Source: Cyanidioschyzon merolae
Lineage: Eukaryota
Assembly: GCA_000091205.1 (NCBI GenBank)
Contig: AP006488.2
Length of the DNA: 64,000 bases
Direction: 5' to 3' (one strand)
The stretch's first letter is position 1. The number at the start of each line of letters is the position of its first letter. The notes under the pieces were generated by a model that did not search any database, was not told the origin of the DNA, and saw only the letters and a program-made list of their open reading frames with translations. A program made the position numbers and the translations under genes. This document shows, piece after piece, positions 1,968 through 52,140 of the stretch.

Positions 1968-2455
1968 CCGATTCTCCTCAGCTCATGTTTCGCATGCTGC
2001 AAGTCAGGTTGGGTGAACAGCTTATGCGTCTAGCAGTTTGTTCCAGTTTGCAGCTTCGATGGTAATGCATGCTTCAAGAAGCTTGTAGAGCTTGCGACTT
2101 TCAGGGGTTGTCTTTCGAATACTGCAAGTCTGGCTGGACAAACCGTATAACCGTCGATCTGGTGTTCCAGTGCATGGTCTCGAATGTCATACGTGCTTCA
2201 AGGAGGCTAGAGTACGGTCGGGAAATTGGTTCAGGACACCTTTATCCTGCAAACTTTTGCGTACAAAGCGCACGCCATAGACGCGATTGCGCCGTATCAG
2301 GCGATGCTTGCTGGCGTATCCTGCTGGTAAACCTACAAGAGATATCGGCTGCAAACGAATCCTGGACCTGAGCAGACATCGAGAAACAGTCATTGCTTCC
2401 GCAGCTTGGGAGAGTACCAACGATGGTATTGGGCCACCTTAGACGGAAGTTTTCG

Positions 2456-2950
2456 CTATTTCAGGCCAGGGATCAGCAAAGCACTGTTCCTCATCGAATT
2501 CAGGGACGCATGTCGCTCGTACATAGCCTCGTAGCACGACGAGTAGCGTACGCGACGCCAGGCAAAGAGCCGGCAACATGCGCCTGCGCACTGGAACGAC
2601 TCGCGATGAAGCTCACCAACTCCATTGTGTGTGTGTGTGTGTGTACGCTCCGTTGCATGCTCCTGCACGGTTTCAACGAGGCCGACGATATCGACAGCGG
2701 AGAGCGCTGTCGCGAACCTGCCGGCAAGCTCCTTACCCGTCAAGTTACCCGCGATCCTCAAAAGCATTCTGTTTGCTTCCTCCTCGGTAAACAGCGGAGG
2801 CAGAGCAAGATGCTTCCAACCCAGCAGCTCTACATCGAAACTGTGACTGCGCTGACGAAGAACCCTCCATGACTCGTCGATAGCAATCCGGAGGCCAGAG
2901 TCCCGGGCTCTCCCGCCGGACGATAAACAGAAACAATTTTTGCGAAACAC
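2456..2950 (-). CDS. hypothetical small protein (164 aa), contains a (TH)n stretch from the (GT)n microsatellite
   Basis: ORF directly downstream of SmD1 on the same strand. The translation looks helical and protein-like (EEEANRMLLRIAGNLTGKELAGRFATALSAVDIVGLVETVQE), but I see no recognisable family. The opposite-strand ORF 2393..2872 looks like a shadow. Confidence 0.2.
   Translation of the reverse strand: MFRKNCFCLSSGGRARDSGLRIAIDESWRVLRQRSHSFDVELLGWKHLALPPLFTEEEANRMLLRIAGNLTGKELAGRFATALSAVDIVGLVETVQEHATERTHTHTHNGVGELHRESFQCAGACCRLFAWRRVRYSSCYEAMYERHASLNSMRNSALLIPGLK
2627..2644. repeat. (GT)9 microsatellite
   Basis: gtgtgtgtgtgtgtgtgt read directly from the sequence. Confidence 0.9.
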
Positions 2951-2960
2951 CCCGGCACAG

Positions 2961-3365
2961 TCAGTGTCTCTCTTTCTGATATCGTGTTCTGGGGCTGAAC
3001 TTGCGCGTTTCTTTCAAAGCGCTCTCCAGGTTCAATGACTCGGGCAGAATGATATATCGAACCGTAGATCCCCGGATTCGATATTCTCTCGCCTTTTGCT
3101 GAGGTTGATTCCGACGACTCATAGCTGAGGCATCCGGTTCACTGAATCGCTCGGTCCAAGGGGCGACGACCTGGGCCGCGTGCGTCTCCAGAGAAGCAGA
3201 GGGGAGCTCGGCTGGAGGTTTTCCAGTAACGGAAGCGTTCAGCAGGTAAACGTTCATCTCATTATCCACTCGCTGTACAGTTCCCGTGGCCTTCGTCCCA
3301 TCTTTCAGCTCAACAGTAACAGTGGCACCTCGAAGGCGAGTTAGGAAATAAAGCAAGGGGGTCAT
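2961..3365 (-). CDS. SMD1: small nuclear ribonucleoprotein Sm D1
   Basis: Sm fold: MTPLLYFLTRLRGATVTVELKDGTKATGTVQRVDNEMNVYLLNASV ... IRGSTVRYIILPESLNLESAL closely parallels the SmD1 consensus (FLMKL..ETVTIELKNGT..G.I..VD..MN.HLK...IRGNNIRYFILPDSL). The track start at 3416 is a TTG, so the first ATG (MTPLL) is used. There is a ~24-aa insertion relative to canonical SmD1; see findings. Confidence 0.65.
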   Translation of the reverse strand: MTPLLYFLTRLRGATVTVELKDGTKATGTVQRVDNEMNVYLLNASVTGKPPAELPSASLETHAAQVVAPWTERFSEPDASAMSRRNQPQQKAREYRIRGSTVRYIILPESLNLESALKETRKFSPRTRYQKERH

Positions 3366-3729
3366 TTGTCGGCTCAGACGCAGGTGCGCAGGTTGCAGCC
3401 TCTCAAAACTCCCCAAAGAGCGTGACCTAGCGAAACCTGTGAGGCTGCAAGTGGCGCTCGAAACGGAAGCTCGAGAGCGCTGCAGGACCCTTTGGGACTC
3501 GGACTGGTCTCACAGAGTGCACTTGGCCTCAACCGCAGCAAACAAAATCGTTCTGTCTGTGAGAACAGCGCTTGATCAAGTTCAGCAACAGAGGGTAAAG
3601 CTCGTGCGGGCTTAACGGCAGTGCCAGCCGCTTTCGTCAACCCACTGCTGTGACAAGCAACTCTTGCAGGAGTATATGCTCAGTAAAACAAAAAAAGTTC
3701 CACAGCCATGGAGGGTACAGAAAACCCAT

Positions 3730-4200
3730 TCATAGAAATCTCCAAGCTTCTTGTGACCGGCCGGCTTCTACTGATTTTGTTTTATCCAGGCATACCTCAT
3801 GCCTGGGAGGCTGCCCCAGAAAGTTGGATTGCGTCAGCTTCGAGGGTCTCGTCTTCAGTACCGCACAGCTCCTTATATTGATGGAGGCGTTGAAGTCTCG
3901 GTTCACAAACCCCATGCTTTGATGGCCTTTGATGGAACGCTTCAGAGGAAGGATTGCCAGAACTCGTCCCCCCTGTGTCAATGTATTCTCGTCGTGGTCC
4001 CGTCGGACAAGCGCCTTATCTCGCCGATCCCCTCACTTCTTCTTCGTCTTCGTCACTGGCTCGTCTTAGCTAGATGGTCGGGGAGGAGACGATTTTTGGC
4101 TTTCTTTCGACAGCCAGCAATGGTGGCCCTGTAGGATCCCCGACTTTCATGTCCATGGCTTTCCCTTGGATTTTTTATTTCTTCAAAATGAACGCACTTC
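3730..4200 (-). mobile_element. decayed 3' portion of a Fanzor/TnpB-like (OMEGA-type RuvC nuclease) element, copy A; carries the RuvC-III fragment VNRDFNASINIRSCAVLKTRP
   Basis: Minus-strand ORF 3730..3981 encodes ...GFVNRDFNASINIRSCAVLKTRPSKLTQSNF, the TnpB/Fanzor RuvC-III (D)RD.NAA.NI hallmark. Upstream frames are broken. Roughly 450 bp (3735-4200) is homologous to 12795-13255 (copy B), and the 3' part is ~75% identical at the nucleotide level to 51930-52020 (copy C). An 8-bp-stem hairpin ccaggcat-acctc-atgcctgg lies at 3786-3806. Confidence 0.55.
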
Positions 4201-4275
4201 TTTATGCCCTAATGTGAGGACGTTTCCGACGCGATTAGGACTTGCGGAAGGCAGAGAACATGTGCTCCGGGTGAG

Positions 4276-4917
4276 TCACCGTTTGCTGAATGCATCAGTG
4301 ATTCGTCCAGTGGAGCGATCATTGCGTGCAACGACGGAAAACCCGCCTTCGATGGGGCTCAACCACGGAGAGCGCGGAGGAATGAAAAGCAGCTCGACAC
4401 CAATAGCATCAGCAACAGCTCCAAAGTAACAGGAGTGGTCAAATGCTATGTTGTCCAACAGAATGAAGTCGCCAGGCATCAGGGGGCAAGTCTTTGATGA
4501 TTCGACAAAGTGGTTGGAGCAGTTGGATAGGCGTTCTCTGCCTGCGAAACTGAGGTCGCCGAATATATCCTCAAAAGCTTGAATAAAAGTATGATATCCT
4601 CGTTCTACTCGAGTTCCATCGTACGTACAACGGGTTTCCTAATCCGCGAATATCCATATACGTTCCGATCGGTTCTCCCGATGGAATTCTTATCAACTGA
4701 AAAAAAACAAACCGACGCCCCTCTGCTTCATACTGATAGTGACGTTCCAAGAACTTTGTTGTCTTTGAGCTTTCAGTAGAAGACGGCCGTGCGTGAAAAC
4801 GGTAATATTTTTGCGACGATATCCAAGTGTTTTCAGAGCCGAACGAACAAGCTTTTGAGAAACAGAAATGCCAGTGGTGGCTACTACCGTCGCTTTTGCT
4901 CTCCGTAAGGTGATCAA
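4276..4917 (-). pseudogene. Tc1/mariner (IS630-Tc1-type) DDE transposase remnant
   Basis: ORF 4276..4479(-) reads FILLDNIAFDHS...GVELLFIPPRSPWLSPIEGGFS. This matches the DDE_3 second-D region (DN..H) and the LPPYSPDLNPIE hallmark, with the third catalytic D replaced by W. ORF 4693..4917(-), ISVSQKLVRSALKTLGYRRK...RLLLKAQRQ, resembles the N-terminal HTH / 'R..fA..h' region. The frames are interrupted and total length is too short for an intact transposase. Confidence 0.5.
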
Positions 4918-6883
4918 CCAGTCTCTTTTTTACGATTTACTGCGAGCAGTCTCTGAAAATATTGGTAGCTGGAATAGAGCACAAGTACTTGTTTCTTTCA
5001 GTGTGCCTCAACCATGTCATTCCAGTTGTGTTGCTGACCTGAGGGACGAATGCAATCCCCCTCGCATTTTTCACTAAAGAATATATCCTATATTCAATTC
5101 ATCTGTGACCTCTACGGTACATTGAATGGTCATTTCGATCTCCTGCTCTACACCGAATAGGGGGTGAATCAAAATTGAGTTGAAAAACGATCATCATGGC
5201 GCATACATTGTTTCGCGATTGTGCGTTGGATTCCATGCCTGCACACGGAAACGTACATGTCACTGAACTTTTTGGACCCAGGATCTCCAGGTTCAGTCCT
5301 GAGCGCTGTCGGCAGAACGCCGCGAACACCAGCTGTGCGACTCCTTCGGCTGGTGCGGCGACCAGTTGATGATTTTTCTTTGGGCTGCAGGACGGATGGG
5401 TCGAAGCTGACGCTGCAGCGAACCAGCATTCTCGGGTACATCCCGTTGGCAGGCCCTGGCATCATCCACGCGTTCCATTTCTTGAAGCGAGGGGATCGAT
5501 GACTCCGAGCCGAGGCTCCTGGGATGCAGGGGAAGCATTGGTGATGCTTCCGCTTTCACTGCACATGATCGATATGCCAGCGAAATGATAAGCACGTCCA
5601 TGAAACTGCTCTGAAGCACTGATATGAACGAAGGTCGCCTCCTATTCTGAAAGGATAAAAACTTTGAAATTTTTGCGCACCGCTATGTGTACAATTCGAG
5701 TCCCTTGCTCGCTACTCGTTGTACGAACGGGACGCGGTTTGCAGCGTAGGTCTGGAGCCTGCATGAATATCAACGCGTCATGATAGCGCGTCCACGCGGA
5801 GACTTAGCCGAATACCAATCCAGGTTTTGAGATCTGGATATCCTTCGATATATATGGTAACCATATGAACTGTGCGATCCGTGGCATCGGGTCGCGAAAA
5901 ATAAATCAATCGAAAAAGAGCCCCGTGGCTACTTCTGGAATGTATCTACGCACGGTCGCTTCGTTTCAGCAGCCACGTTTTCTCGCAACGAGCACAAGTT
6001 CCAGCTTGCACGCCTCAGCTGCGTTCGACTCAGCGCTCTCTGGGAAGCACACACTCGCGTTTTTCGCACGGTCTGCAAGACCCCGAGGCATCCGCGGAAC
6101 CCTGCGGCGTCCGCGAGTGCTCACAGGCGCTCTGAGCTCGGAAGAGCGGATCGTATCCCGGTGAAGAAGATGCCTGCTTCAGGCACGGAACCAAAATTGA
6201 TATTGTGGAGATGATTCCCGCACAAGAAGCACAGCCACTCATGCTGAATGCCCGACAACGGGCGGGGATCATGGAATACGATGCATGTTGACCGTGGACG
6301 AGCGGTTGAACGTAACGCGCCCTTGTGTGCTCCCAGCCGTGAACCCGTCATCGCTCACGTATCGGTATCGATTTCCATAGGTTCCCCGCATAGCCACCGA
6401 ATGCGATCCACTAAACCATTTCATATATCCGAAATGTAGGTCGTCTCGGGTGGCTGAATTCCTTGCGAGCACGGACACGGCACATACAGCATGCACCAAT
6501 ACAACGTTTATGATGCCTGCCCCCTCGAAGACACATAGGAAAGCACATGCTGCACCCTTCAATATAACATGCGTCCTGTTTGCTTCCTCGCAGAGTCAAG
6601 CAGAGCTCATACTGCACGCACCTTCGCGATGTATTCGACGCCAGCGAAAGTTAAGCGTTCGGGCCGTGCCAAACAAGACCAGCAAAGTCATCGCTGCGAG
6701 CAATTTCATAGTGCATTGATGATTACATTTATCATGATGATTCTAAAGAGCGATACACTTGGTACTGCCGCCGATCCGACTCGAGAAATTTCACCCGCCA
6801 CTACAATAGATATTGATCCACAGAGTACATCCTCCAGGAATGCCCGCTAAAGTGCGCAAGTACATGCATCCGAGCTAGCGTCA

Positions 6884-10163: not shown

Positions 10164-12794
10164 GCCCAGCATCTTCATAGAAGACGTGCTCCAGACGCCA
10201 AGATTTTGCGTGGCTCGTATACCAGATGAAAACTTGCCCAAAGCCTAGAACATGGTTGCAAGGAACCCTGGGTCCAACTGGATCATGCAGGATGCGCTTT
10301 CGTAAGGGCATGTGGTAGCCACGGTCACCGCACCGGTATCGATGCACCGCGGCGCATAAACATGGCTCAGATGCAACGGGGCAACGGTTGAAGGCTACCG
10401 GGTAGCGTCAGCTGTGGAGCTGCACGGGTACGTACACAAGCAGAGCAGCGAATCATGTGCAGCGGGAGCTCATTGTCGCAAATTCATCATGGTTTCGTTA
10501 CAGCATGCTTGTAACTAGCGAATACACGACATAGGCGCGCAAAAGTCTTTTATATTACCGTTGTGCGTTCCTGAAACATGAATGCTGTGGCTGTTCAGCG
10601 AGTGCATGCCACTTCGCACGATGAACTCCGCTGTCGTGCTCGAGAATGCATGGCCCATGCCATCAGCGGTGGCACTGAAACGAAACCTGCTGCAACTTCG
10701 ATGGTCGGTCGGCGAAAAGCATGAACCTGTCCCATGGTAATCGGCGTCATGGTTGTAACGCTCTCTGTTCGACACTGGGACACCGCGCCGGACTAGGTTG
10801 CGCAGGTCCATCACATCATCATGAAGCTTCCGCTGGAGACATAGGACTTTGCCATCTCTTCAACTCGTGTCCCGAATGTTTTGTCAAATAAGCCTCTACA
10901 CCCAAGTCGGACGAGAATAGAGCAGATAAACTTTGCCAACTCGGGTGCATACTCCAGAGTTCTCTATTCTTCGAGCCATCACGAGCGCCGTCCTTGGCAA
11001 TGTCTTTCTGCGACTCCTTCTTCCTTATCTCTTATCTCCGGTATTGAAATACGCCAATCCCTCCTGTCCCGCCAGCTTTTTTGTCAGCTGTCGAGGGACG
11101 TTGATCCCAGCGCTAGTCCCGATATTGCCGGTTGCGGGTGTTGACGACACATTTCATGCACTGGCGCAGGTTGAGATCTAGGCTGCGCATGCCATTGCCA
11201 TCTTCTCGTTTGTAAAGCGTGTTGGTGTATCCCTCGCAGCGGTGACACTCTAGTGTGATACGATGTTTCGAGATGTCCACCGCATCTCATGCTCTGGGAG
11301 CCTCCTCGTAGCACGCGAAGCAGTCCAGAGGTCTCGCCTCTATGCCCTAGTCCATTTCCGCACCCATCGCCATCCCCTATAATAACAGGCTTATTATGAG
11401 CGACTTTCTCGGCGAACGCGCTATCCGCTGCGCGCGCAAGAGCACGCTGTTCCATTGAATAGAGAGGATTTCTGGAACGCGATGTTTTCCATGATGAAAC
11501 AAATACCAGAAGGAAAATTCAGACTGGAGACAAAGTCGATCAATTTCGAGCCGTCTGCGCCCCGTGTGTGTCATGCGTTGGCGCGCGCTCTCTCCACTCG
11601 GAGCGATCGTTGCGAGGACTCAAGTCCGAGTTTAGGACCCTTTGCCATTCGAACAGAAGACACGGGAACCTCTCGGAGCATAAACATTGATCGAAATACT
11701 GCAGGTGACGAATGGCGATTCGTCGACGGCCACAGCCCCAGGCAGAAATGTCTTTCGAGTGAAATCCATTGTTTGACATGTGAAGTTCATTGAGTTTTCG
11801 ACACGAGCTTTTGAACGATTCGTCAAGGAACACGCCGAGAGTTCTTCCTCATCAATCCAATGGCGTGAGTTTTTGTTGCGCCTTCGAGTTGCTTTGTGGC
11901 AGCTTGACCGAGTATTTGAAGAATGCGTAATTTGCACGTGTCGCATGCAAGGAAAAGAGAAGAGTGGCGGTTTGTAGGTATGACTCGATTGATGTTATCT
12001 GTTTGTTTACGAATCCCTGATCGCGGGCCTTGTGAATCATGTCGATGACGATGTCGTGACAAATCCCGGCGGCAAAGTATCGAATGAGCCATTCCAAAAA
12101 GTCCACCGCAAATCCGAAACCACTGCGTAGATCCATATGCCACTACTAGTGCAGTTTAGATTCACAGGTTGCACATAAATGAAAATATCGGAATATAATC
12201 GAAAAGCAGGAAGAGAACGAGCTGTTCAGCGTTCCGATTTGATTCTGAAACAGGACTAGTACCAGTGGGTTGTCTGGTTTCCGAAAGCAAACATATACTC
12301 GGGAAGTTTTCGTTGGATTTATCGATCTCACGCCGCAAAAAAGATTCGCGGGGAAACATTGTTGTACGCTTGCAGATAGTGAAACATTTAGTCCGTTATC
12401 AGAAAGCGTTTGGGAGAACGCGGACCAGGACTTTTGTAGGCAACGCTTAGAGATGAGGCTCGCCTTAAAACAGCATGGGCAGCCTATCGAGCTGCTGCTT
12501 CCCTGATGATGTCGTCGGCACCACAGTGAATATCCACGGTGCGCTCATCAGAAGGAGACCTGGTGGAATGAACGAGCGTGGGATCTTGACGCAAGACCCA
12601 CTTGGAGCAAACGGAAACTTGGAGCTGCTGGGTAGAAGCTAATATGCGTTCTTGCTACGGGTAGCTTTCGTCCAACTGCGATCATTTATTTTGATCTGTT
12701 TACCCACAAACCAGTTAAACTTATGCTCTGTGAAACGAACAACATTTCACGACTATGACGTGTACATATTCACCCTTTCACAGACGCTTCCCAG

Positions 12795-13400
12795 CCTCTT
12801 TCGACCGGTCGCCTGCTATCGGTTTTCGTTTCTCCAGGCACTCCTCTAGCCGTAGAGCGTGTACCACAAGTTGGATCGCGTCAGCTCCTCGGGCCTCGTC
12901 TTCAGCACCGATCCTCGTATGATATTGACGGCAGCATTGAAATTCCGTTTCACGAGCTCATTGCGTGTATTGCCTCTGGCTGAACTTGCTAATGCAGGGA
13001 CTGCTAAATCAAGCAATCCTCTCTGCCGCTGCAGTCTCGATATCATCGCGTCAGACATGAAAACCTCTCCTCGCCTATCGCCCGCCTTCTTCATCTCCGT
13101 TACGCGCTCTTATTCGCTCGATGATCGGTGAGACAAGGATTTTTCCGTTTTTTTGCCGGCAGCCGGCGACACCGAGCCTCCAAGATCCTCGACTTCCATG
13201 TCCATAAATTTCCCTTGGATTTCTTATTTTTGAAAACTTACGCACTTCGAAAGCATCTGCCACGAACCAGGAAAAATCATCTGATGACACACACCGAGAG
13301 GTGGAACGCAACTGAGGTGTAAAACGATAACAACCCAATGCGACGTTGCAGATGCCTAGTCGCAGCGGTGACACGGGCGCCCGCGCATTCCTCCCCAAGT
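12795..13400 (-). mobile_element. decayed 3' portion of a Fanzor/TnpB-like element, copy B; RuvC-III fragment VKRNFNAAVNIIRGSVLKTRPEELTRSNL
   Basis: ORF 12846..13094(-) carries the RD.NAA.NI-type motif (here K-R-N-F-N-A-A-V-N-I). The frameshifted upstream ORF 13075..13398(-), ...EVRKFSKIRNPREIYGHGSRGSWRLGVAGCRQK, is homologous at protein and nucleotide level to copy A (KCVHFEEIKNPRESHGHESRGSYRATIAGCRKK). Nucleotide homology to copy A runs over about 12795-13255. Confidence 0.5.
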
Positions 13401-14941: not shown

Positions 14942-16686
14942 CTGCTGTGTGCCACATGGCGTCGAGAACGATGGGTATGGAAAGCAACGCATGGCAGCGT
15001 TCTTGTCAGCTGAAGATGACGTCGCGGGTCACGTTTCTCCAGTCGTAAAGGGCAACCGCTGGATCCAGCGCCTGCCTCACATTCTATGATGAAAGCAGCT
15101 GAAGCGAATGTGGCGTTTCATATGCACTCCCTGGGATCTGATTCGCTTTCTCGATGCACTCATGTTGCAGCTGGAATATGATCCCATGCTTCCAACAGAA
15201 TACCGTTCTCCTCAATGGAGCCGCTTCGCTCCAGAGGTGTGCATTCATTCAGTTCGGCCCAAAATGGTGTGTTCAGCACGACGCCTTCTTGCAGGGACCG
15301 GTGCAGCGCTCTCGTACGAGCATTTAGTTCTGGTTCGGAACACGGTACAGCCAGCTCGATGCGAAACCTGAACGAGTGCATTCAGCCTGCGTTAAAGCAA
15401 GCGCATGCGAATACATATGGACTAGTAATGCGTTAAATGGAGGAGCACTCGCTCTCTTGGACCACCGTGCTGCTTTGAAGAAACAAGACAGGTTCTGTGG
15501 CATCCTTTTCTGACGCATGCACAACGATATTGCCCACAAGTTGCAGCAACCGAAGGTGTATCGGCACCGAAATAGATGGACCCCAGAAGCGATTGGTAAC
15601 GCCCGTGCCAATCGAACCCCGGCGAGACTGAGGCTCACGCAATGGATCTTTGTAGGCATGCTTAGTGATACAGGTCAATGGAGCACCATGACTGACTGGA
15701 AAATGGCAAACAAAACCGTTCGCTTTTTGTGTATGTGGCGCCCAAAATACGCTGGACCAGGGGCCCGTACCATACCAGCGAAATACTCGGGGCGAGAATC
15801 CAATGCCCCCTGTCCTGGGCTGTGATTTGTTCTCATCGAAAGTCTCTCCACGAGCCGACGCTCTCTGAATGGTACGGCAACGCCGTTCTGTCTCCGTGCA
15901 GCGACCGCACCGGCGCTATAGGCGCCATTGCGGATGCTCTCGGCAGGCATTTGGCACACAATAGGACGTTTAAAATGACCAGTATATCCGAGAAGAAGTA
16001 TAGGTAATGTAACTTGGAGGTAGGGGGTTTGATGGATACTTCACCGCGTACTGAAAAAAAATAAGAAAAGAAAAAGCACACAATCGGCGAACGCTGGCCT
16101 AACTTAAAGTTTTGTCAAGTAAGAAAACGAAACTCTCCAGCGTTTGAGCTCAATCTCCGCAGTGCATACAACACACTGCGCACGAACAAACGACTCACGG
16201 GAAATAGCTGGACGCTCCGTATGTATGAGACACTTTCAGATATTGATCGGTGCGTTGAAGCGCGGGTGTGGAGAACGTGCTTCCGCGCATTGCGGCTGAT
16301 GGAATCACATCATCGTGATGCGCTCTCTTGCGACTGCCTCGCCATTTGACGTTCGTTCAGCTTACCGTTCACCTTTTCGTGCGCCAGTTATTGTTTCACC
16401 TTCTTCTTCTTTACATGTTTCAGCGTTCATGCCCGCTCGTGATACGCATATGTGGTCCCGAACGCATCGATGGAAATCGTGCAACATCGATTCCCGCACT
16501 TGTTCTGGGTGCTCTTGTGGAAAGAGCAATCGTGCATCCCCGGCGAGTTACTGAACATCCAGCACCATACGCTGCCGCTCAACGAAGCGAAACCTAGGCC
16601 ATTTTGGTTTCCATTTCATAGCACAGTCTGACGAATGGAAGCTTCTTGCTTCAGTACAGCAGTCAATGTTGGCGAGCCTGGCGCGT

Positions 16687-17110
16687 TCACATAAACCACT
16701 GCCAAGTATCGTCGGCATGGGGCACTTTCGGTTTATGTGATCCACGAACGAAGCCTGCAATGCCTCCCCATTTGCTCGAGATGGTGCATCGGGGGTCGAA
16801 GAAGGTCCTGGCGCCGTCGTTCCACATGTTGGCACGCCTCCTGGCGTCAAAGAAGCCCGCCTCCAGATAATACCGAGTTCTGGAAAAGTTGAGCAGCTTC
16901 ATTAGCTCTCCATGCAGATCTTGGGTTCCGTACTCATGGTTAAGAGGTACGCCCAGAAACATGACGACCTTGAACCCGGAATCCAAAACGTCTACCAAAA
17001 CTTTTTCTCCTATATCCTGAACTGTTGACATTGAGATTTATTGCTCGTCTTGGGCATGGGGTTCACAATCTGAAAGCAGACAGATATTTCAAGGGTCGCC
17101 ACTGTCTATT
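16687..17110 (-). pseudogene. degenerate PPP-family/metallophosphoesterase-like fragment
   Basis: Minus-strand ORF ...LVDVLDSGFKVVMFLGVPLNHEYG resembles a GDxVDRG ... GNHE phosphoesterase core. The upstream frame reads CEPHAQDEQ-stop (GDxHGQ-like) with an in-frame stop, and catalytic residues are mutated. Weak evidence. Confidence 0.2.
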
Positions 17111-19860
17111 TTCACCTTTTCCCGCTTGCTCCCCCAAACCTGGAAACCCTGAAGGATCTCCATCCCGCTATCCCCACAAACTGTTTCGAATGCCTCTGAG
17201 TTGTAAGCAGAGATCACCCGTTGCTCACCTAGTTGGGTATAAAGTTCAGTACAGATTTGTCTACGATGTTGAGATCTACCCTAGTCTGACGTACACGGAG
17301 CATGTTGAGTGATAGCTCGAGGAGACGACGGGCACTCTAATGCAGGCAGGGAGTCTGCATTGCCCCGGAGGACTCTGTTCACTTGCCCAAATCGCAGTGC
17401 AGATAGGAACACTGTTTCAACCATCCTTTGAATATGACCTCATTTGGCCCGAGGCCGAGACCAACACCATGCCCTCGGACGATTTGAAGCGATCGCCACG
17501 CTCGTTGCGGCATCTCTTCCAAACTCGCTACCTCTTCGATCTCCTGCGCCAGCAGCTCGTCACCCGCCTCCACTGACACTCGGAGACTACTCTCCATGAC
17601 TCCCATTTTTCTTCGCCAGTAAGGAGATCGGAAAACGCCCACAGAGTGCGCTCCACGCAGCGCTCGAGCTAGAACCGCATTTGGGTTTTCTAGTCAGTTT
17701 GATACTGTTTGACACCTGCTTTGTGGATGTACCACTCGCAGACTGGGCACAGCAATGCGTCAACAAGTTCGAGGAAGCGCGTGCGCGAAGCTCTGATCCG
17801 ACGATCAGACCATTTTTGCATCCTCTGTCCAGAGCGTCAGCCGCTGCATGAGGGTATTATGGAAGGATTCCAGTGGAATGTGCACAGCTGGCTGCCCTGC
17901 GTCCGGAACACCCACAAATGTTTGTTTCATGATGTGCATCAAAGCGAGAGAAGCTCGACGAGCCTCCCTCGGGCCGGGAGTTCGACTACTCCGTATGGCG
18001 TCCTGCCTCGCGCTCTATGGAAGATTTCATCAATGAATACATTGCATGTGGGAGACGATGACACCCGTCTCGGATAGTTCTTTCTGCTCCGATTGTTTAA
18101 CTTGCTGTTCCATCTCGTCCTCTTTTGAGCTGGACTTTGCTCTTCTTAGTCTCGTAGGTTCTTCTCCTTCTCATCGTTAGCCTTGCCCTGTACGTGGTAG
18201 CGTAGCACGCATGTGGTTGCTATAATCTGTAACCATTGTTCTTGCGGACTCTGGAGTTCTGGGTAGACACTGATGCTGAAAAAAAGCCTTTTCTCTCTAT
18301 GAATCTACTAGTTTATATCCCTTTTCATAGTGTTATCCGTTGCGAGTACGCCCACCGGCATATGCGCTCGTTTCTGCTCCTTCTCCTCGCACGAGAAGCG
18401 GAGCAGCGCAGCAATCTAGATGTGGTGATCGTCGAGAACAACTTGTATATACATTGCGGTTTCACGGATGCACACGACTTTAATGCTGTTCAGTGAGCGT
18501 CGAAATGGCGCTCGACAACTGGAAAGGCACCATCGACAGGATTGATCCAGGGGCACGGGCTGGCGCGCAGAGACGCTCAGAATCAGCCTCAGCTGCGCAC
18601 ACGATGGCCTATTGAGCGTGGCAGAACTGGGCGTTGTTGAAGATCAGGACAGTTATATGTTAGGAGCATTCGCCACGAACATTTCTTCGACCAAGGATGG
18701 GGTGTTTAAGTATCCTTTATTTTTCCGATATGTAGATAGCCATACGACAGCGTCGCCGCTATGGCTAAGGTTGTCGTCATTCTCGCCTGTCACGTCTTTC
18801 CGAACAGCGGCTTGCCTCACATTGAAGGACCGCCGAGTTCTACTATCCATCCCGAGTGAAGCCATATCGAGTGAGACGAACAGCCGCTTCTGCTTTCACA
18901 AGCGTTCGCATCTCAGAGCGTCATTGAAAGCATTTTGTTCAACGCGCGCTTGCCTTCTAGATAAGCGTGCAATGTACTCGCCCACTTTGTACACCGTTCG
19001 TGTCAACGGTAACAAATCTTGGAATCCTGCGACTTCTTGAGATATTCTTCTTCGAGAGCATATGAAATGCAATGGATTGATGCGTGGATAGTCGTACTAG
19101 TAGCGTAAAACAAGTTCTTCCCTGGGTACACGTCGTTCAGGAGAGGAACTACGCCAAGCTTGGCGCTTATCCACCTGCTGACCCTGGAGCAACTGATTTG
19201 TTCGAGTAGGACCTTTTACCCATGTTCTCGGTGACGGCATCATGTTTTTCTTCGACTATTCTCTATTGTAAAAAGGCAGACTCCTTTTGTTGTGCTACTG
19301 ACAGAAGAACAAACAAAAAAGCGTGCTGCTGCATCTGCTCCAGCGTGCAGTGCTCTGAATCGAACGCTGCTTTGGCGATACCTCTGAACCTCGTCATTCT
19401 GGACACAATACATGCAACGCGGCGGCATCGACAGTGCCCGAGCGTTTCATGCACAGAACTAGACAATCCAGCACGGATTGTTGCCCTAGGCAACGTCGAG
19501 CACATATGTCCATTATAAAACCAATATGTTCAGCATCAGGAGCGTGCTCCTAGCGGCGCCTCATTTCGCCATCGATGGTGGCGGAGACGCTCGCACGGGC
19601 AATGACGTGCGCGCTCACGTCGCAAAGCCAGCGCATCGCGCTGCGTGAGCGTTCAAAACGTGAAACTACTCCGGTGTGTGAACTGACTCGTGTGCAGGGC
19701 GTGATCCCACTTCGTCCTTGTTCATCAGTTGGTTGCAGTGACATCTTTGTGTTTGTGGCGAAGAATTTGGCAGATCTGCTCGGTCTCTGAACTTGAAACC
19801 TTGTACTGCAGGAACGCACCGAAGACACCGCTTGGTGACGCATTGTGCTGGTGGTTTTTC

Positions 19861-35292: not shown

Positions 35293-38200
35293 GGCAGCCT
35301 CTTGTGACTCGACGCACGACTGAGGCACAGGAATCTGCAGGGCAAGCTGCGAAAAGCGTCGACGCGATGCAGTAGGTGCCAATAAGCGTTACACCGTCGC
35401 GGTCGAGATGGCGTGCGCGGTTTCGCCCGGTCGGCTAGCGCGCGCTCCGGAACACCTACCAGGCTCGATACTGCTGCAGCCGGTGCTGTTGTCCTCTACA
35501 GAACGTATCGCCGGTCACAGTCCCGGAGTTCCTGGAGCCTTCTGCGCGGTCCAGCGCTCACCGTGCGGGTTACCAGCACCGGGGCACCGCCACAGCCCCA
35601 GGGCGTGTCAGGTTTCGTCGGCGTTGCCAAGGCGCCGCCGCACAGCCGCATCCGCGGCACGGGGCGCAGTGCGTCGACCATTCTGTGGAGAGTTCAGCGC
35701 ACTGCATGCTGTAGTACCGGGAAAAAGACGCATTTTTGTTTCCGAGTGTTCTTCTAACAGGCATTGGATTGAAGGAATTTATTTGTTAAAAAGGAGTTTG
35801 GTGGGCGAATAGGGTGTATGTTCTCGCATCTGAATGAGGAAGGAGCGGAAATGGACGTACAACTTCGTCATACTACAGTCACCAGGTGGATGCGCCATGC
35901 TTCTCGAAGCCCATACTCAGAGCGTCGTGCACCCGACATGGAACGTTCCGAAAGCTATATACACGCTTATCTTTACGAAATCTATTCCAGTCCAAATGCT
36001 CGCACCGTAATGCCACCAAAGATGCAATTCCATGTAAACTTTCGGTAACGTTTCCTCGAGCGGAGATGAAGAGACGCGGATGGATCAAGAAACAGGCACG
36101 CCTCAACAGGAGACCGCACCATTTCGAACAATACACAACAGATTCTGTATAGAAATGCGAATACTTTTCGTGGAAGCGACGGGCGTTCATCTCGCATGAT
36201 GACAAATTCATCGATGACCAATGCGAGACTTGTATAGACGTTGCCGTAGAGGGGCAAGCCGCTGTTTGTGAAGAAGAGTCAAGCGAGCATTCCGACAACG
36301 TCAGTTCTCGCGACGATTCAATACTGTATTCGCCCATGAATCGCAACACAGAGAGCAGCGCTCAGCACCTGATCCTCCGATGAAACACGCCTCGAGTTCC
36401 ATCTTTTCGTGTCCTTCTCCTGGGCAATATCTCTCAGTCCATCACTGATGTAGGTCGGGGGGCGGGGGCGCGGTTTGTAGCTGCTCTTCGTGCTAGCACA
36501 CGCTCGCGGGTTCCATCCGCTTAAAGACGTCGTATAGGATTTCAAACGCCATTTTGATCTACCGGAAGAACAGACGAGTCGTACGTAACCGTGTTACAGA
36601 AGTTCTTCGACAAATCACTCTTTGTGTTCACCAGAACCGAATCCATGCATTGATTCTCCGCTCATTGGCAGCTGAGAAGGGAAAGGTGCGCTCCGGTCTG
36701 GGAGCGGGCATGCGATGGCTAAGGCGACGAAAAAGCACTTGAGAAACAGTGCGTACATTCAAAGAGAAGACGAGTTTCAGGCACGTCGAGCGATCAGTGC
36801 GTCTGAGTGCCAAGAAAGAAAACGTATACAGCGTATCATGAAAAAATCCATGCTACCTAGCCGAGTAAGCGAAAAGGCAAAGATGTCGAAGCCGAAAGAG
36901 ATGCAACCACACGTCAAAGCAGAGAAATAGCTTCCCTAAAAGATGACGAGTTCCGACGGGAACGGAGCACCTTCCGATCGGAAAGATCATTGTTGGACCG
37001 CTGTCAACGCCTCACCAATAAATCATATCCATTGGGAGAATCCTTGAAGGCGTCAGGCACACGACGCCATTAGAGATCGCGTAGCTTCTTACGCGCACAA
37101 GTCTGGCCTATTTCGTCTTGTCTTGGTGCACCGCGCCACGCGACGCTTCGGTGGAGTTCCAGACACGGGCGGCAAGCTCTCGGCATTTCTCTGGATTTTT
37201 TTCGGATCAGACCTTCGTGCGAGAACACAACTTATGCTCCGGATAGAAGGCGCAACACGGCCTGTTCATAGGATTCCGGATGTACTCGCACGCTTCCCAG
37301 AATACCTTGACACATTACCGCGCCACCTCGGCGATCTGAGGATCGACAACGCAGATGCCAGAAAGTACGGAACTACATTCAACATACCAAATTAGGTTCA
37401 GTGTCGAGCGCTTCACGAAACACCTCCCATGCGCATTGTATCCTCACGTCACATACGCGATAAAATACGGATGGATGGACGGGATGCTTAGCGGGTCGAT
37501 GGAGGAAAATGACGAGCGATTGGCGGCAAGAGATCGAGGTGGCAGCGAGTTCGGAACTGATGTGCCAGCGATAGGGAGTATCGCTTCAGGTAATCCAAGC
37601 TCGTCGTGTTGCCGTCAGCCTCGGGTCGGCGGATTTCGTACCGAAAAGGATCGTTGAGACGCAACGCCTACCTTGCTTGCATCTACGGTTCCATGTTTCG
37701 CTGAGCAGATCTTCCCAGAGCAGACCAGAGCAGATTCCATCAGACCGTCGCCTCGAATCCAAGCGCCGTAGCCTCCGAAATCGCCAAGTGGATGTGCTCC
37801 CAGCACCTCAGATGGAAGCCCAGTCGATCACCCGAGACGCTTCTGCTCTGTACTGTATCGCATCTTCAGTGAGCTACAGCTGGTCTGTCTGCGCGCAGCT
37901 ATTCCGCATTCCACTTTAGAGGCTAGGAGCATTGCAGAGCTCGTTCAAGGCTCCTCGTGTACGGAGAAGGAATGGAACGAATTCTACAGTGCCGATGAAG
38001 CTCGCTGGAATACAAATCCGCATGTACTTGTGAGATCGAGGCCCAAGTCAAGCGATGCGACTCGGTCTCAGCCAAAGAAGACATATCAAGAGAGAAACAT
38101 CATGGTGGGCCCGGATCCCCAGGTCTGAGAATATCATGACGGTTGTCGTACCTCTGAATCGAGAGAACGTATCGAGGGATATGCAGGGAATGCAAATGAA

Positions 38201-39993
38201 GCTACTCAGCTTTTCCCGGGCTCGATTTCACCCAGGAATGGGCATGATGAATGCGAGAAGGCACACGAAAACTGGAAAGACGGCGTCAGGGACCAGACCC
38301 CGGTGCTCTGAGCACACTGTCCTGCGGACGAGGATGCTTTGTGTGCTGCATTCAGAGAGAACACGAGCGTCCAAATGGCGTATGTCGACGATCTCTGGCA
38401 GAAATACCTGCGGACGCACGGGAATGGCCAACGATTTTCGGCGTACAGGGGCAAGACGCGAGTATTCAGCGACTTGTTTCATGAACAGGAAAAGAAATAC
38501 GACGGATCGTTCGTCTCGTTGGGTGACGGTACCCTATGGCGCAAGACGTGCTGTGGCGCTCGTGGGCTGCACGCCTGCTCCTCTGACGAGAACGTAGAAC
38601 GAGTGCAGGAAACGATTCTGTACGACGCCTGTCGATGAGTTACGGCCAAAAGAGAAACGTCACGAGCACGAGTGCCCGTTGAAACAGCCAGAAACGAAGC
38701 GCTTGAAACAGAGCACAATGGGCGAGATGGGGTACGGCAGGCTGCCCGAAGTTCGAATGGCAAGGCAATGGAAGGTCAGCGGCCTGCGTTCATGTGCGCA
38801 TACTGGCAACCATGCGAGCCAGCTCCTTCTGCAACGAGACTTCGCCTCGATCAACATCTGGATATGTCTGGTGCCTCGTGCAAGTTCAGTAGCTTTACGT
38901 CGAGCAAAGTTTCCTGGTACTCGTTTCGTACTCGGTGCGTGCATTACGCTGAAACGCAGAAGAATTCCGATGACGTAGAAATACGCAGTCAAAAGGGAGG
39001 GAATCTTATTGCAGCTCGGAGCAACGCACTGGTATACTGCGGTTCAGCAATTCAGCGCCGCTGCACTGTGTATCGATACCCGGAAAACCATTCGCATTGC
39101 CATTAGGTAGGCGGTACTGGATTCCCGTGATTCTCGATTCGTAAGTATAATCAATGTTATTTGACCGAGTTGTTCTGGGAAACGAGCGACAACAGCTGCG
39201 ATCATTGCACAGCAGCTGGCAACCTGGTGTCTGTCTCACACACGGTCCGAACGTTGAACGCCTGGACACGTGCCGGTGCGTCACGCTTGCATTTCAACAA
39301 GTTCGTGGCGAATAGGCGTTTCCATTTCAACATTGTGGCAGCGACGCTGACCCCTGAACCAGAGGACAACGATAAAATCAGGGCATTGCAAAAAGAAGCG
39401 CACGCGGAAACCTGTAGCCACCTCCATAGCAATCCCTGTCGTTCAACGATACGAACGCTGTGTCGAGGACTGCTGGGGGCGCTGCCAAACCACTGGATCT
39501 TCTATTGCGAAGTTCGCACACTCTTGACAAAGATAAACCTCACGGAGCCGTCTGCCGCGCACAGACGACATTTGGCGGAGCGAAAACGCGTCTACTGTGG
39601 GAGGCTCATCAGTGGCTTTGCGAAAGCAACTAGCTTCGCTTCCCTGCGATACGATGCTGGCACTGTGAAGAGGCAAACCGCTTGAAACGGTAGCACCCGG
39701 ACACACAGATCGGGCTTGTAGCTGCGGAACAGCAGCGACTCGTTCGCTCTTCGATGCTTTTGATGGATGCGGAATCACAACATCTGAGGAGGTACCGAGT
39801 TCGTTGAAGAGATTGAGAGAAAGAGAGAAAACGTAGGAGAGCGCAAGGGAGCGGCGCAGTAGCTCGCGCGCTCTGATTGCCGACCTCGCCCTGGGCACGA
39901 TTTATGATTCTTGGATACGAAAGCCGCGGTTTCCGTTGCCTCCAAGGCAACAAACAGTTCCCTGTAATACTATAGACCCATGTAATTCAACTG

Positions 39994-48373: not shown

Positions 48374-49439
48374 GGTGCCCGCTCACCCCTGGTACACAGC
48401 CACAGACACGCTTGCTTCAGCAGCTTCAAAAACCTCCTGGTATCCAAACACGCTCCGCTTCAACCCGACTCACGGCTTCTCTGAGCAAAATCTGTCGAGC
48501 GAACAATAGACAACTCAACCAAAACCACCACAGAGTCGCAGCCCAGAGTCTTTTGTAGACGTGACAAGTCGTCCGTGCGAACTGGCGCTGCCACTACCGC
48601 TGCGTCGCGCGAGGGTTTCCACTACAACCGACTCGTGCAACCTCGAAACAGCCTAAAAACGGAAACTGACCTCTATCGTTGGATACTGAGTATTCCTGCT
48701 TTCACGTCAAGTACTATAGCACCAAACAGGAACCTACTCGAAACGTGTATACCCGCTCATATGGTCCATGCGTTCAGGGTAGTCACGCGCTGAGCGTCTA
48801 TCGAACGCGCGCTGTCTCGAGGCGCTGTTCATACATCCCCGCGTGACGCGACCCTGCGGGCGCTGATGCGCAAGCGCGCGCTGCAATGGACATCGCTGCA
48901 TCAAGATCGATGGTGCAATCCTGATTCGATTGCGATGACAAAACGTTTCCATGGAGCAGGGATCCCTGGTTTCGGGAAGGATGGGTGGTGGCGTTCGGGA
49001 AAGCGTCCATCATGATGTTACCTCCAGGTTCCTTTTGGATATACTGGCCGTTTCGTATGGTCTATCGTTTGCCGAGTACTTGATGTGAGCGCTCGCCTCG
49101 GGGCTTGTATCGCTGGAGCAGATATATCATGGGGATAGAACGGCTTTGGCACGCCATTGAGGGCGTCGGATCGAGGAACGCTTCACCTGATACGTAGTCG
49201 GAGTATATGATCAATCTGCGAGCCTGCAAGCTGCGCTGGCAGACGGACTGCCTGCGGCAGTTTGACGCGATATACTAGGAGTCCACTGCGACCAGATCGA
49301 CGCCCAGATGGAGCCTAACTGCCCCTGATCCCAGAATGAATTGCGTTTTGCGGACGCATTGTTCAGGTCTCGCCACAGCACCTGCCACTGGAGGAAGCAT
49401 GAAGCACGAGCTTGGTAGATTCGTCCGTCTCGCGGGACC

Positions 49440-52140
49440 TTACGCCTAGAAGGTAAACTTTCGAAGATACGGAAACCTTTCCCCTTTGTAACGTTTATCG
49501 TAGATGGGGATAGAAATACATAAATATTTGCAGGTGAATCGTGAGTCTATGTTCCTTATTCTAAATAACGCGCTCGGTACGCGCATCCCAAATTTGGTAG
49601 TACGAAATACGACGCGAATGTCGCTGTTGAAGGGAAACGCGATCGAGACAACACGTTTTCTTTTTTGGGAGCATTCGATCTCGTACTCGCAGCGTGCACT
49701 GTTGGTGAGGGTCTTGTCCCATGGATGACAACGGCATTGCACGGCTAGATCTAGTGTGTTGTTCTACTGTAAAAGTCGGATTTCCTTTGAGGCCATAGCA
49801 AAGTCTAGTTTCCCAGTTCAATTGTGTTTCAAACCTCAAGTAAGAATATTCCATTGAATTTTCGCAGCATATAACAAATGCGTTCGAAGAGGGCTCTTTT
49901 TCAAAAGAAACTAAGAAAAAGGAAAGTTGTGAAAAAGCAACTGGACGATCCTTGAAGTCCAGGATCCTCGGCTGCCAGAAAAAAAAACGAAAAACAGTGC
50001 CGAGTCCAGAAGAAAAGGAAGAGAAGAGGACCGAAAGGGGGAGGCCCTGCGTCGAAGACGGCCAGAAAGACGACTGTACGACGAGACGGTGGTGAAAGCC
50101 TTTCTTCTTGGACATATCAAGGGGTCGTACAAGGAAAGGTTGCGAGACGCTATCGAAAAACGTGTCGATTCGTACACCAAGAGCACCATAAAGACGTCGT
50201 CAGGACTGATGCATTTGGTGAGAGAGATGTATCGCGACGTGACGCACATGGAAACGGTCGAGATTCCAGACGAGTTGTTCGACCAGACCTTTATTCGGCA
50301 CCTGATGCTTGGCACAGGGAAACGCGGAGGGGAAATGAGTTCGTGCATGCTCTCCACGGAAAACATCCCTTTTATAGCTTCGAGGGTACTCGATACAAGG
50401 CTGACCAGGATATTTACACATACGGGGCAATGAAGTACCTCACGAATCTGAAGAACCATTTGACAATGAACCTCGAACGTTTCATGATACGCTCCGTGTT
50501 TGCACTCTACCCGGGTCTGTCTCGCAATGGAAAATGGGCGATTATCAATGGCATCACGAAAGATCGTAAGCATGAAGATGAGACGGAGATCGTTGACAAG
50601 AAGTCGTCAAACGAGAGCACGAATGAAGCTTCTGTAATCCGTGCGCCTAGTAAAGAGTACCGCGCAGACCTGGGGCTGGCGAATCCAGCAGAAAAGATGT
50701 CAGAGTTGAAAAAACATATGGAAAAATACAATCGCCTCATCCTGCGGTATTTCTTGTTTCTGGACCGAGAGCTCGAATGCAAGGCAGATGTGAAGCTAAG
50801 TGAGGAAAACAATGAAGAGTCGGAGAGACGGACGGCTTTCCTAATGGGGAAGCGCGTCAACGTGGTTCCAATGTGCAACATCAAGTCACATTTTGTGACT
50901 ACCGACTCCAGAGTCCTTCATGGCATCATCAGGAAGATCAGTCTTGAGTTCAATGTTAGCAGGGAGGAGTTCACCGGCGAGAACCGGGAGCCGTACTGGA
51001 AGAATATCTTCGATTTCAAACGTCTCAAAGTGAGCAAGCAAAAGGTATTCACTTGGATGATCGAAACCGATGGAGTAGCCATGGACGTACACTATCGGCG
51101 CTTGAAGGCAGATCGTCCAGTTCCGCCCTCTGCTGCGCCCTCGACGAGCCATGCAGAAAAGAAGGAGGCGGATCCTGCGATGCAGGAGGTGCAGGATAAC
51201 GACTTTGTCGTGGGTGCGGACCCTGGGAATACGAATATCATAACCATCGCAGCACCCAAGCCTGGGGAAGATGATACTGACGGTGACTTACGTCAGAGAG
51301 ACAAGCGTCTTTTGAGGTTCTCGACAGCGAGATACTATCGAGAATCCGGTATAATGAATGCAAGGAAGAAAATTGATACGTGGAATGCAGGAATGAAGGA
51401 TCACCTGGAAGCTTTGAGTGAGGTGACGAGCCGAGGAGCGGGCTTACAAGCTTTTCGGAAACTCATGGAAATACGCGTTGCTCATTGGGAGGCGCTGTGG
51501 GAGGAGTATACAAATCCCCGGTGGGCTCGTCTGCGAATGAATCTATATTGTGGGAAGCAGCGGGCGTTCGCGGACTTTTTCAATCAGTTGAGTGCCCTCA
51601 AAGAGGATGAAACTCAGAGGCTGGAAGTAGCTTATGGGGCAGGGCGCTGGAAGAACCGAAAAAAGGGACTACGCCAGCTCCAACGACAACAACGTACAAA
51701 GAGTGTGCACGGCGTTTCGCTACGATACCTGTAGATGAGTTTCGAACGTCCTACACACACCATGAACTGGGGTGTACACTTCAAAGGGTCGAGATGGAAA
51801 AGTGCCAGCGGAGCGCTGAAGACTTAAAAAGCACGGACCACTGACAGAAGAGCATATGGAATAGAGGGCAAAAGTTCGTGGACTACTCGCATTCGTAAGT
51901 ACAACCATTTGCAAAAAACGTATGGAATTTCTGAACCGGGACTTGAACGCCGCGATCAATATCAGGAGACGTGCGGTGATAGAACAGAGACCTCCACAGT
52001 CGACAAGAGCGAAAAGCGTTGGCTGGCGTGATCATTTCGTTCATGAGAAAAATCAACGGCGCGCTCGAGCGACTCTCCAGCCACGCCCGAGATATTCTCG
52101 GTCCGTCGTTACGCCCGAGATATTCTCGGTCCGTAGCTCC
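49440..52140 (+). mobile_element. Fanzor/TnpB-like (eukaryotic OMEGA-type RuvC nuclease) element, most intact copy (copy C), in a lower-GC island
   Basis: Composition changes abruptly to AT-richer at ~49440. The nuclease ORF runs 50089-~52000. The 3' end holds a ggctgg...ccagcc stem, the 10-bp palindrome cgctcgagcg (52061-52070), a 24-bp unit acgcccgagatattctcggtccgt duplicated at 52083-52106 and 52111-52134, and (acga)4. Boundaries are approximate. Confidence 0.5.
50089..52000 (+). CDS. Fanzor/TnpB-like RuvC nuclease ORF (RuvC-I, RuvC-II/TS..C zinc-finger and RuvC-III motifs present); reading frame interrupted at ~50340-50430, ~51720 and ~51840 (frameshifts or short introns), so possibly a pseudogene
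   Basis: Main frame 50343..51734 contains [19 protein letters not shown] (RuvC-I, the GIDLGI..lA pattern) and [10 protein letters not shown]. The adjacent frame at ~51709-51840 reads [21 protein letters not shown]...C (the TnpB vd.yTSq.C zinc-finger lead-in with E). The frame at 51922 reads [19 protein letters not shown] (RuvC-III, D-RD.NAA.NI). An N-terminal piece at 50089..50433 lies in a third frame. Track starts 50089 and 50343 are GTG. Confidence 0.55.

Follow-up and report, generated by a model that had tools for sequence, protein, structure and literature searches.

Two short segments on the minus strand of a 64,000-nucleotide stretch of Cyanidioschyzon merolae DNA (hereafter, the window), copies A and B, are very probably old, dead copies of a non-autonomous, internally deleted derivative of the Fanzor1 transposon CMe-1A. 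This derivative, here named mini-CMe-1, is marked by one internal deletion of approximately 1.75 kb and would itself have been amplified, each copy decaying neutrally after its insertion and being functionless today. The same junction is present in six copies at unrelated loci, which indicates that the deleted form was itself copied, and since this form cannot encode the nuclease, its copying would have depended in trans on whatever machinery moves CMe-1A. Only cis-acting sequences would then have been needed by the element, and its structured 3' end is the best candidate among them.

Copies A, B and C are members of CMe-1A

The window is part of chromosome 6 of C. merolae 10D, five of its complete open reading frames (ORFs) being identical to BAM79464.1, BAM79472.1, BAM79474.1, BAM79477.1 and CMF092C; it encodes a clathrin heavy chain, DXP synthase and a lactonase, and is therefore eukaryotic. 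The sole Fanzor1 family described in this species, CMe-1A, has approximately 150 genomic copies, which show about 80% identity each to a consensus of 3169 bp and have no terminal inverted repeats (TIRs), and its target-site duplications (TSDs) and class were left undetermined by the authors (Bao and Jurka 2013, Mob DNA 4:12, PMC3627910). The 5' 635 bp of CMe-1A correspond to a separate element, TE-N2_CMe (PMC3627910). The CMe-1 protein and the consensus DNA used here come from the supplement of that survey; within the consensus, the ORF (nt 906–3110) encodes 734 amino acids (aa), so that just 59 nt at the 3' end of the element are non-coding.

An initial annotation of the window, made from the sequence alone, had placed A, B and a third copy, C, in one TnpB/Fanzor-like family, and this is supported, as CMe-1A is matched by all three. 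Because these copies lie in C. merolae and C matches the published consensus from nt 1 to 2992 (nt 1–725 at 79% and 734–2992 at 86%), the family is identified as CMe-1A itself. The similarity noticed between A and B is real, with 67.2% identity over 534 bp between positions 3675–4200 and 12722–13248 (blastn, E = 2e-37; MAFFT alignment), and it stops sharply at both ends, the flanks of the two copies being unrelated. The match of A to C is better than had been estimated (82% over 56 bp, 3860–3915 against 51922–51977; blastn, E = 3e-10), and the 38-mer quoted for it, which occurs once in the window against zero expected, agrees with A by eye at 32 of its 38 bases. Furthermore, B matches the 5' region of C (13140–13259 against 49875–49994, 67.5% over 120 bp, blastn), and this gave the earliest indication that the two copies consist of more than a 3' end.

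The annotators' idea of a proliferated family agrees with the published copy number and with our scan of related metagenomes for the C-terminal motif, which gave over 600 pattern hits, of which 484 were confirmed; 80 loci were kept from it (named L0xx). For the window itself three copies had been counted, rightly taken as a repeated family and yet too few, since five Fanzor-like relics (A to E) and one TE-N2-like fragment are present (Table 1).

An internal deletion shared by six copies

Table 1. Features of the window discussed in the text, with their positions, strand and the analyses on which they are based.
Feature	Positions	Strand	Basis
Copy A, probable decayed mini-CMe-1A (internal-deletion derivative)	3665..4199	-	blastn against B and against consensus; nhmmer; six-copy alignment
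A: start codon ATG (4156-4154) and remnant of N-terminal ~50 codons, MDMKVGDPTGPPLLAVERKPK...	4010..4156	-	translation
A: approximate deletion junction, consensus ~1068 to ~2818 (aa ~55 to ~638)	3980..3995	-	placed by eye on alignments (mini consensus against CMe-1A consensus; six copies); residue mapping
A: remnant of C-terminal ~85-97 codons	3730..3979	-	translation; tblastn with P0002, P0047, P0005
A: 8-bp hairpin inside ancestral coding tail (codons PPRHEVC)	3786..3806	-	sequence; alignment with minis and full-length tails
A: 3'-terminal ~65-70 nt of mini element	3665..3735	-	folds, pair counts
Copy B, probable decayed mini-CMe-1A, same deletion as A	12722..13329	-	blastn; nhmmer
B: mini-ORF remnant, 119 codons, ATG 13205-13203	12846..13205	-	translation
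Copy C, near-full-length CMe-1A	48933..52013	+	blastn against consensus; frame analysis; tblastn; nhmmer
Copy D, much older Fanzor1-like pseudogene, many stops	16140..18137	-	tblastn with P0002, P0047, P0005
Copy E, much older Fanzor1-like pseudogene, many stops	36979..38957	+	tblastn with P0047, P0002
TE-N2_CMe-like 5' module fragment, consensus nt 84-257	15847..16024	-	blastn, 81% over 178 bp, E 1e-41
DDE_3 transposase remnant (Tc1/mariner/IS630-type), decayed; immediately upstream of A and in its orientation	4237..5186	-	Pfam PF13358

The claim that only the 3' module survives in A and B proved wrong, for each still has the 5' leader and the start codon, with some 54 codons of the N-terminus. 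The RuvC-III-type peptides quoted for the two copies were found on the minus strand, and so were the peptides quoted from upstream of them; the latter, however, had been read in the wrong frame and correspond to the ORF N-terminus, not to a frameshifted piece. In the correct frame A reads MDMKVGDPTGPP.. and B reads MDMEVEDLGGSVSPAAGKK.., both matching the N-terminus of the published CMe-1 protein, MEKEVEDPGGPVSPAAGKKRK, although in A this remnant is broken by stops and a frameshift. Likewise, what was called "homology past the ORF" was for the most part coding in the ancestor, given that the consensus ORF ends only 59 nt from the element end: the frame of A runs through the hairpin to a stop at 3732–3730, and its C-terminal tail, GQPPRHEVCLDKTKSVEAGRSQEAWRFL, corresponds by homology to GQPLKVELYEKKLEAVVGGRSKKTGRRL at the C-terminus of the consensus.

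The mini form is approximately 0.53 kb long and joins consensus nt ~786/869–1068 to ~2818–3169. A mini consensus maps to CMe-1A nt 869–969 and 2840–3083, with 117 intervening nt bridging the junction ~1068|2818. The deletion (consensus nt ~1069–2817, approximately aa 55–637), which is apparently in frame, removes RuvC-I (D431), the RuvC-II region and the TS/zinc-finger segment. On the 5' side it leaves the leader and the start codon with about 54 codons of a basic N-terminus; on the 3' side, the last ~97 codons, among them the RuvC-III "RD", and the 3' terminus. In A, homology to CMe-1A begins at 4199, equivalent to consensus nt 869, and reaches a 3' terminus at about 3665–3675; blastn aligns consensus 869–969 with 4199–4093 at 72% and 2901–3012 with 3915–3804 at 79%, the nhmmer 3' profile matches 3929–3723, and the RuvC-III motif, FVNRDFNASINIR, is found at 3909–3871. 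Copy B extends further upstream, with consensus 786–969 aligned to 13329–13141 at 77% and 2864–3010 at 68%, and with nhmmer matches to the 5' profile at 13326–13086 and to the 3' profile at 12976–12724. It reads in one frame across a junction at about 13060–13070 with a single internal stop, and the RuvC-III Asp has been replaced (VKRNFNAAVNII).

Four further minis, collinear with A and B and with unrelated flanks, were met by chance in the flanks of metagenome loci from related organisms (L024 ~750–1260, L077 ~3076–3570, L046 ~5380–5942 and L053 ~1300–1856). The six copies are 67–72% identical to each other and 69–82% identical to the mini consensus, and all six carry stops or frameshifts. 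A protein-database search with the mini profile found no intact mini-ORF, returning only the 82-aa fragment P0052 from L003, the orthologue of B. On the 5' side two subgroups are distinguished, since B, L046 and L053 run on into the CMe-1A leader, whereas A, L077 and L024 follow a remnant of a DDE_3 transposase. On the 3' side the minis differ from the consensus by approximately 45 nt in the tail and by a terminal motif, TGAGCATATA, both absent from full-length copies. We found the mini form neither in the text of Bao and Jurka (2013) nor under the term CMe-1 in its supplements; TE-N2_CMe is the sole short relative that the paper names (PMC3627910).

Some 45–60 nt beyond their 3' ends, A and B also have a short motif in common (minus strand; 3607–3625, GCAGTGGGTTGACGAAAGC, and 12657–12672, GCAGTTGGACGAAAGC), which may reflect chance or a shared target context.

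Ends of the family members

Most family copies end at consensus nt 3137–3169, the 3' end being the most constant part of the element. The preferential retention of 3' ends that had been suggested as possible is partly borne out across the family, but A and B are not 3'-only. The 5' side, on the other hand, is variable: the TE-N2 module may be present in direct orientation, as in the published consensus, with a start at nt 1–15, or inverted and abutting a core that starts at 660–740; another shared extension is joined at ~671; and there are copies with an extension-free start at 648 and copies with deeper truncations. Inverted TE-N2-like modules and their cores were observed in L047 (1201–1820 and 1844–4358), L050 (1100–1775 and 1785–4364), L069 (1–169 and 179–2611) and L012 (1–1094 and 1109–3512). 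The TE-N2-like module and the Fanzor core seem to abut by preference whichever the orientation, a hint of a target preference. The DDE_3 transposase present upstream of A was also considered as the source of the approximately 900 bp found upstream of full-length copies and was rejected, as neither tblastx nor Pfam on consensus fragments gave any match; that segment is the TE-N2_CMe-like module.

A separate "3'-only" subfamily limited to consensus nt 2665–3169 was rejected as well, because at least 400 bp of upstream flank are common to its members at 85–89%, which makes them one locus. The copies concerned (L019 3859–4327, L024 3858–4361, L074 3858–4362 and L078 518–1022) are one truncated insertion conserved across several Cyanidioschyzon lineages, and they show that several related species are represented among the metagenome contigs. 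The last ~100 nt (consensus 3073–3169) also occur as solo fragments, at L009 1024–1117 and L076 641–736, about 0.75 kb upstream of full-length copies and in the same orientation, which could represent a tail-to-head arrangement.

RNA structure and selection at the 3' end

The full-length consensus tail (179 nt) is predicted to fold with -73.7 kcal/mol (z = -4.3), and the last part of this fold is a hairpin of 19 bp, seven of them G·U pairs. In 35 of 41 non-redundant copies the sense direction of the terminal segment gives a better fold than the antisense (means of -18.5 and -14.0 kcal/mol, respectively), with an average of 3.1 G·U pairs in the terminal hairpin, and by inspection of the alignment the pairing is kept in two versions of this hairpin, CGTTCGA..TCGAACG and CGTTTTTC..GAAAGGCG. 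RNAalifold found essentially no structure in a 47-sequence 3' alignment with flanks; the structure emerged with the 41 full-length tails alone, and most of its helices are not kept in the minis. No Rfam match was obtained in the window and two full-length loci, nor in a permissive scan of one 3' end. The CMe-1A 3' end is, from these folds, a plausible candidate for an omega-RNA or for a cis-acting element end.

Going further, the structured 3' ~250–300 nt might be the sole cis requirement, serving both as omega-RNA gene and as transposon end, in which case the minis would be guide-RNA-bearing parasites of the Fanzor1 nuclease spread by one-ended, 3'-anchored copying. We consider this rather unlikely. 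If true, the near-constant 3' ends and the varied 5' configurations (TE-N2 in either orientation, an extension, a DDE_3 remnant or none) would be footprints of 3'-anchored copying, which would serve a Fanzor element without a transposase of its own.

A terminal long-range helix of the minis has 76% pairing, compared with 65% in shuffles (0/500 reaching it) and 38–44% in slid controls. Double changes occur in five of its nine pairs (alignment A10), and these compensatory changes are suggestive only. In A this helix is partly broken, six of nine pairs remaining by inspection, and the terminus of that copy shows an inner hairpin, GTGGAAC-T7-GTTTTAC, followed by the terminal TGAGCATATA. The alternative inner hairpin is 86.5% paired across the minis, with no excess covariation. 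The hairpin ccaggcat/atgcctgg reported in A was confirmed (Table 1); it is shared with L077 only, with one compensatory exchange of U-A to C-G, being degenerate in all other copies, B included.

The initial annotation had allowed for selection on the RNA of A and B, of which we found no sign. Among the six minis, pairwise identity averages 0.66 for the leader and 0.69 for the N-terminal coding part; the two halves of the 3' tail average 0.64 and 0.46, so that this tail is no better conserved than the rest. Copy B is fixed at an orthologous locus in a related strain, being 98.4% identical to L003 over 2370 bp including the flanks, and the two differ at 9 of 676 positions inside the element and at 28 of 1696 in the flanks. 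The tail of A folds like its shuffles (z = -0.72). From this flank-rate divergence of B, the even conservation across regions and the weak fold of A, we conclude that A and B are evolving neutrally, with no sign of present selection.

The same data bear on the alternative that A and B are 3'-end remnants kept as stand-alone omega-RNA genes under purifying selection and used by intact Fanzors elsewhere, which we regard as improbable. The family 3' end is highly structured, the tail of B folds better than shuffles (z = -2.78), one terminal helix of the minis has compensatory changes, intact ORFs have been reported in some CMe-1A copies (PMC3627910), and so have conserved stand-alone copies of a Fanzor guide RNA in Chlamydomonas (PMC10530073), all of which would fit such genes. 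They would not, however, be expected to have a 3' tail no better conserved than other regions, a hairpin in A that is not kept in B, a tail in A that folds like its shuffles, the loss of most full-length-tail helices, divergence of B at the flank rate, or no counterpart in Rfam, and an account based on the RNA only does not predict that 5' sequence is also kept in the minis. A cis-acting 3' end or an omega-RNA may still account for the period in which the minis were active.

Origin of the shared junction

Another alternative is that A and B arose by independent in situ decay of full-length CMe-1A, or by a local segmental duplication, and never belonged to a mobile mini family. Internal deletions are indeed common in old copies, such as L007 and L011, which lack consensus nt 1037–1736, and A and B are 9 kb apart on the same strand. 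This explanation is nevertheless disfavoured, and we give it an even smaller chance than that of retained RNA genes: six copies have the same collinear junction, four of them in unrelated contigs, the flanks of A and B have no homology, the two are just 67% identical and fall into different 5' subgroups, and the minis share tail sequence, including TGAGCATATA, that full-length copies do not have. Least probable of all is that the mini form is a retrocopy of a spliced transcript from which aa 55–637 was removed as an intron, for although GT and AG dinucleotides lie near both sides of the junction (by inspection of the consensus) and the deletion seems in frame, the copies include an untranscribed-looking 5' leader and reach the 3' terminus of the element with no poly(A) tail, three of them have a DDE_3 segment upstream, and C. 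merolae has very few introns. The CMe-1 ORF itself is given as a single exon (supplement table, PMC3627910).

Several observations weigh against the amplification of an internally deleted element as we propose it. No TIRs or TSDs were found for the minis, whose transposition is deduced solely from the structure of the copies. They start at consensus nt 786 (B) or 869 (A), short of the published nt 1; the cores of the parent start at ~648–740, and the 3' end of the minis does align to the terminal region of the parent. Three of the six (A, L077 and L024) stand behind the DDE_3 remnant, and this subgroup may have spread within another unit. Four of the six come from metagenome contigs of related organisms, and in the comparison of ends some loci represent one locus met in several samples or lineages, hence not all are independent copies. 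The size of the deletion, "~583 codons, in frame", is only approximate, and the covariation in the terminal helix comes from seven related sequences, the helix having been derived from one of them.

Relationship to Fanzor1 and to other systems

Fanzor1 proteins have been defined by the motif D-X(125,275)-[TS]-[TS]-X-X-[zinc finger]-X(5,50)-RD (PMC3627910), and the CMe-1 consensus ORF contains it, with D431, T606-S607 and R671-D672, and a spacing of 175 from D to TS. Copy C retains NRDLNAA at RuvC-III. In A and B only the last element of the motif is left (NRD and KRN, respectively), so that as proteins they are fragments and not Fanzor1 members. Pfam gave no significant family for the ORF of C; for the homologue P0002 its sole match was PF07282 (E = 0.23). 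No chain among the PDB sequences was matched at E ≤ 1 by a 10-sequence profile. The AlphaFold model of a 702-aa relative is poor (mean predicted local distance difference test, pLDDT, of 49.5, lowest in the RuvC half; TM about 0.22); with this model, the top seven Foldseek matches in the PDB are all Fanzors (SpuFz, GtFz and PpFz, E = 3.7e-6 to 3.4e-4), the eighth being already at E = 0.35. Membership of the Fanzors is therefore supported by the motif, the hits of the predicted fold and the identity with the published CMe-1, while independent sequence statistics give none.

Compared with CMe-1A as published, A and B are from the same host and match its 5' leader and N-terminus as well as its 3' end, and the copies in the window are likewise about 80% identical to the consensus, with no recognisable TIRs or TSDs; they differ in being internally deleted and in approximately 45 nt of the 3' tail. 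An overabundance of 3' ends has been described for CRe-1, CRe-2 and CRe-3, Fanzor1-carrying non-autonomous Helitron2 elements of Chlamydomonas, for which one-ended rolling-circle copying was proposed (PMC3627910). These resemble the present family in their intact 3' ends with variable or truncated 5' ends, their internal-deletion copies and their 3' subterminal hairpin, but CMe-1A, judged at its 3' end, terminates in ...GAAAGGCG(TTGG) and not in the CTRR of Helitrons. The guide RNAs of Fanzor and TnpB (omega-RNA or fRNA) are encoded at the right end of the transposon (PMC10530073; PMC11423790). The CMe-1A 3' region would be similar in that it is predicted to be structured and sense-biased, overlaps the ORF end, and has a putative stem-loop adjoining the element boundary, where a guide would begin. 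Unlike those RNAs, it has no Rfam or sequence match, its ORF stops just 59 nt before the end, so that nearly all of any scaffold would be coding, and the structure is degraded in A and B. Finally, the minis are reminiscent of miniature inverted-repeat transposable element (MITE)-like elements and of the bacterial palindrome-associated transposable elements (PATEs) derived from IS200/IS605, as these too are short and non-coding-competent, keep terminal sequences of the parent and are amplified in trans; in the minis, however, no TIRs or TSDs were found, the parental 5' terminus is not demonstrably retained, and half are fused to the DDE_3 remnant.

For annotation, A and B should be treated as loci of dead CMe-1A derivatives and not as genes or RNA genes. 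An amplified mini that lacks almost the entire nuclease and keeps a structured 3' end narrows the cis needs of the transposase-less CMe-1A, and the mini family provides a candidate for the CMe-1 guide RNA and for the element end that is small and can be tested. The case is otherwise one of ordinary transposon decay, apart from the hints that the folded 3' end alone was needed for copying, and it is a modest lead more than a discovery, considering that the family, its host and the 3'-biased Fanzor1 pattern were all published in 2013 (PMC3627910).

Other relics in the window

The DDE_3 remnant upstream of A, which measures approximately 0.95 kb, was recognized through a PF13358 match on a 67-aa ORF (E = 8e-7; 29.4 bits, the cut-off being 28.6). 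It is 68% identical over 933 bp to a segment of L077 (2222–3136) and 67% identical over 583 bp to a segment of L024 (62–633, blastn). The recurrence of the fusion with a mini in these two metagenome loci indicates that a unit of approximately 1.5 kb, consisting of transposase remnant and mini-Fanzor, was itself copied; a search for TIRs in this unit of A, L077 and L024 gave only short, inconsistent matches.

Copy C is broken by at least three frameshifts and one stop. The final 177 nt of the element are missing from this copy; it ends at consensus nt 2992, where the long ORF with the lactonase gene begins (52019). A near-perfect tandem duplication, two copies of the small palindrome-containing unit cccgagatattctcggtccgt, was seen at ~52085–52135. 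Copies D and E are 27–35% identical to family members at the protein level (E to P0047, 27% over 464 aa, tblastn, E = 4e-32), and their nucleotide matches to the CMe-1A consensus amount to one short, weak match for E and none for D. An older Fanzor1 lineage may have left these two relics; a single Fanzor1 family is listed for C. merolae in the 2013 survey (PMC3627910). The TE-N2_CMe-like fragment lies just downstream of relic D.

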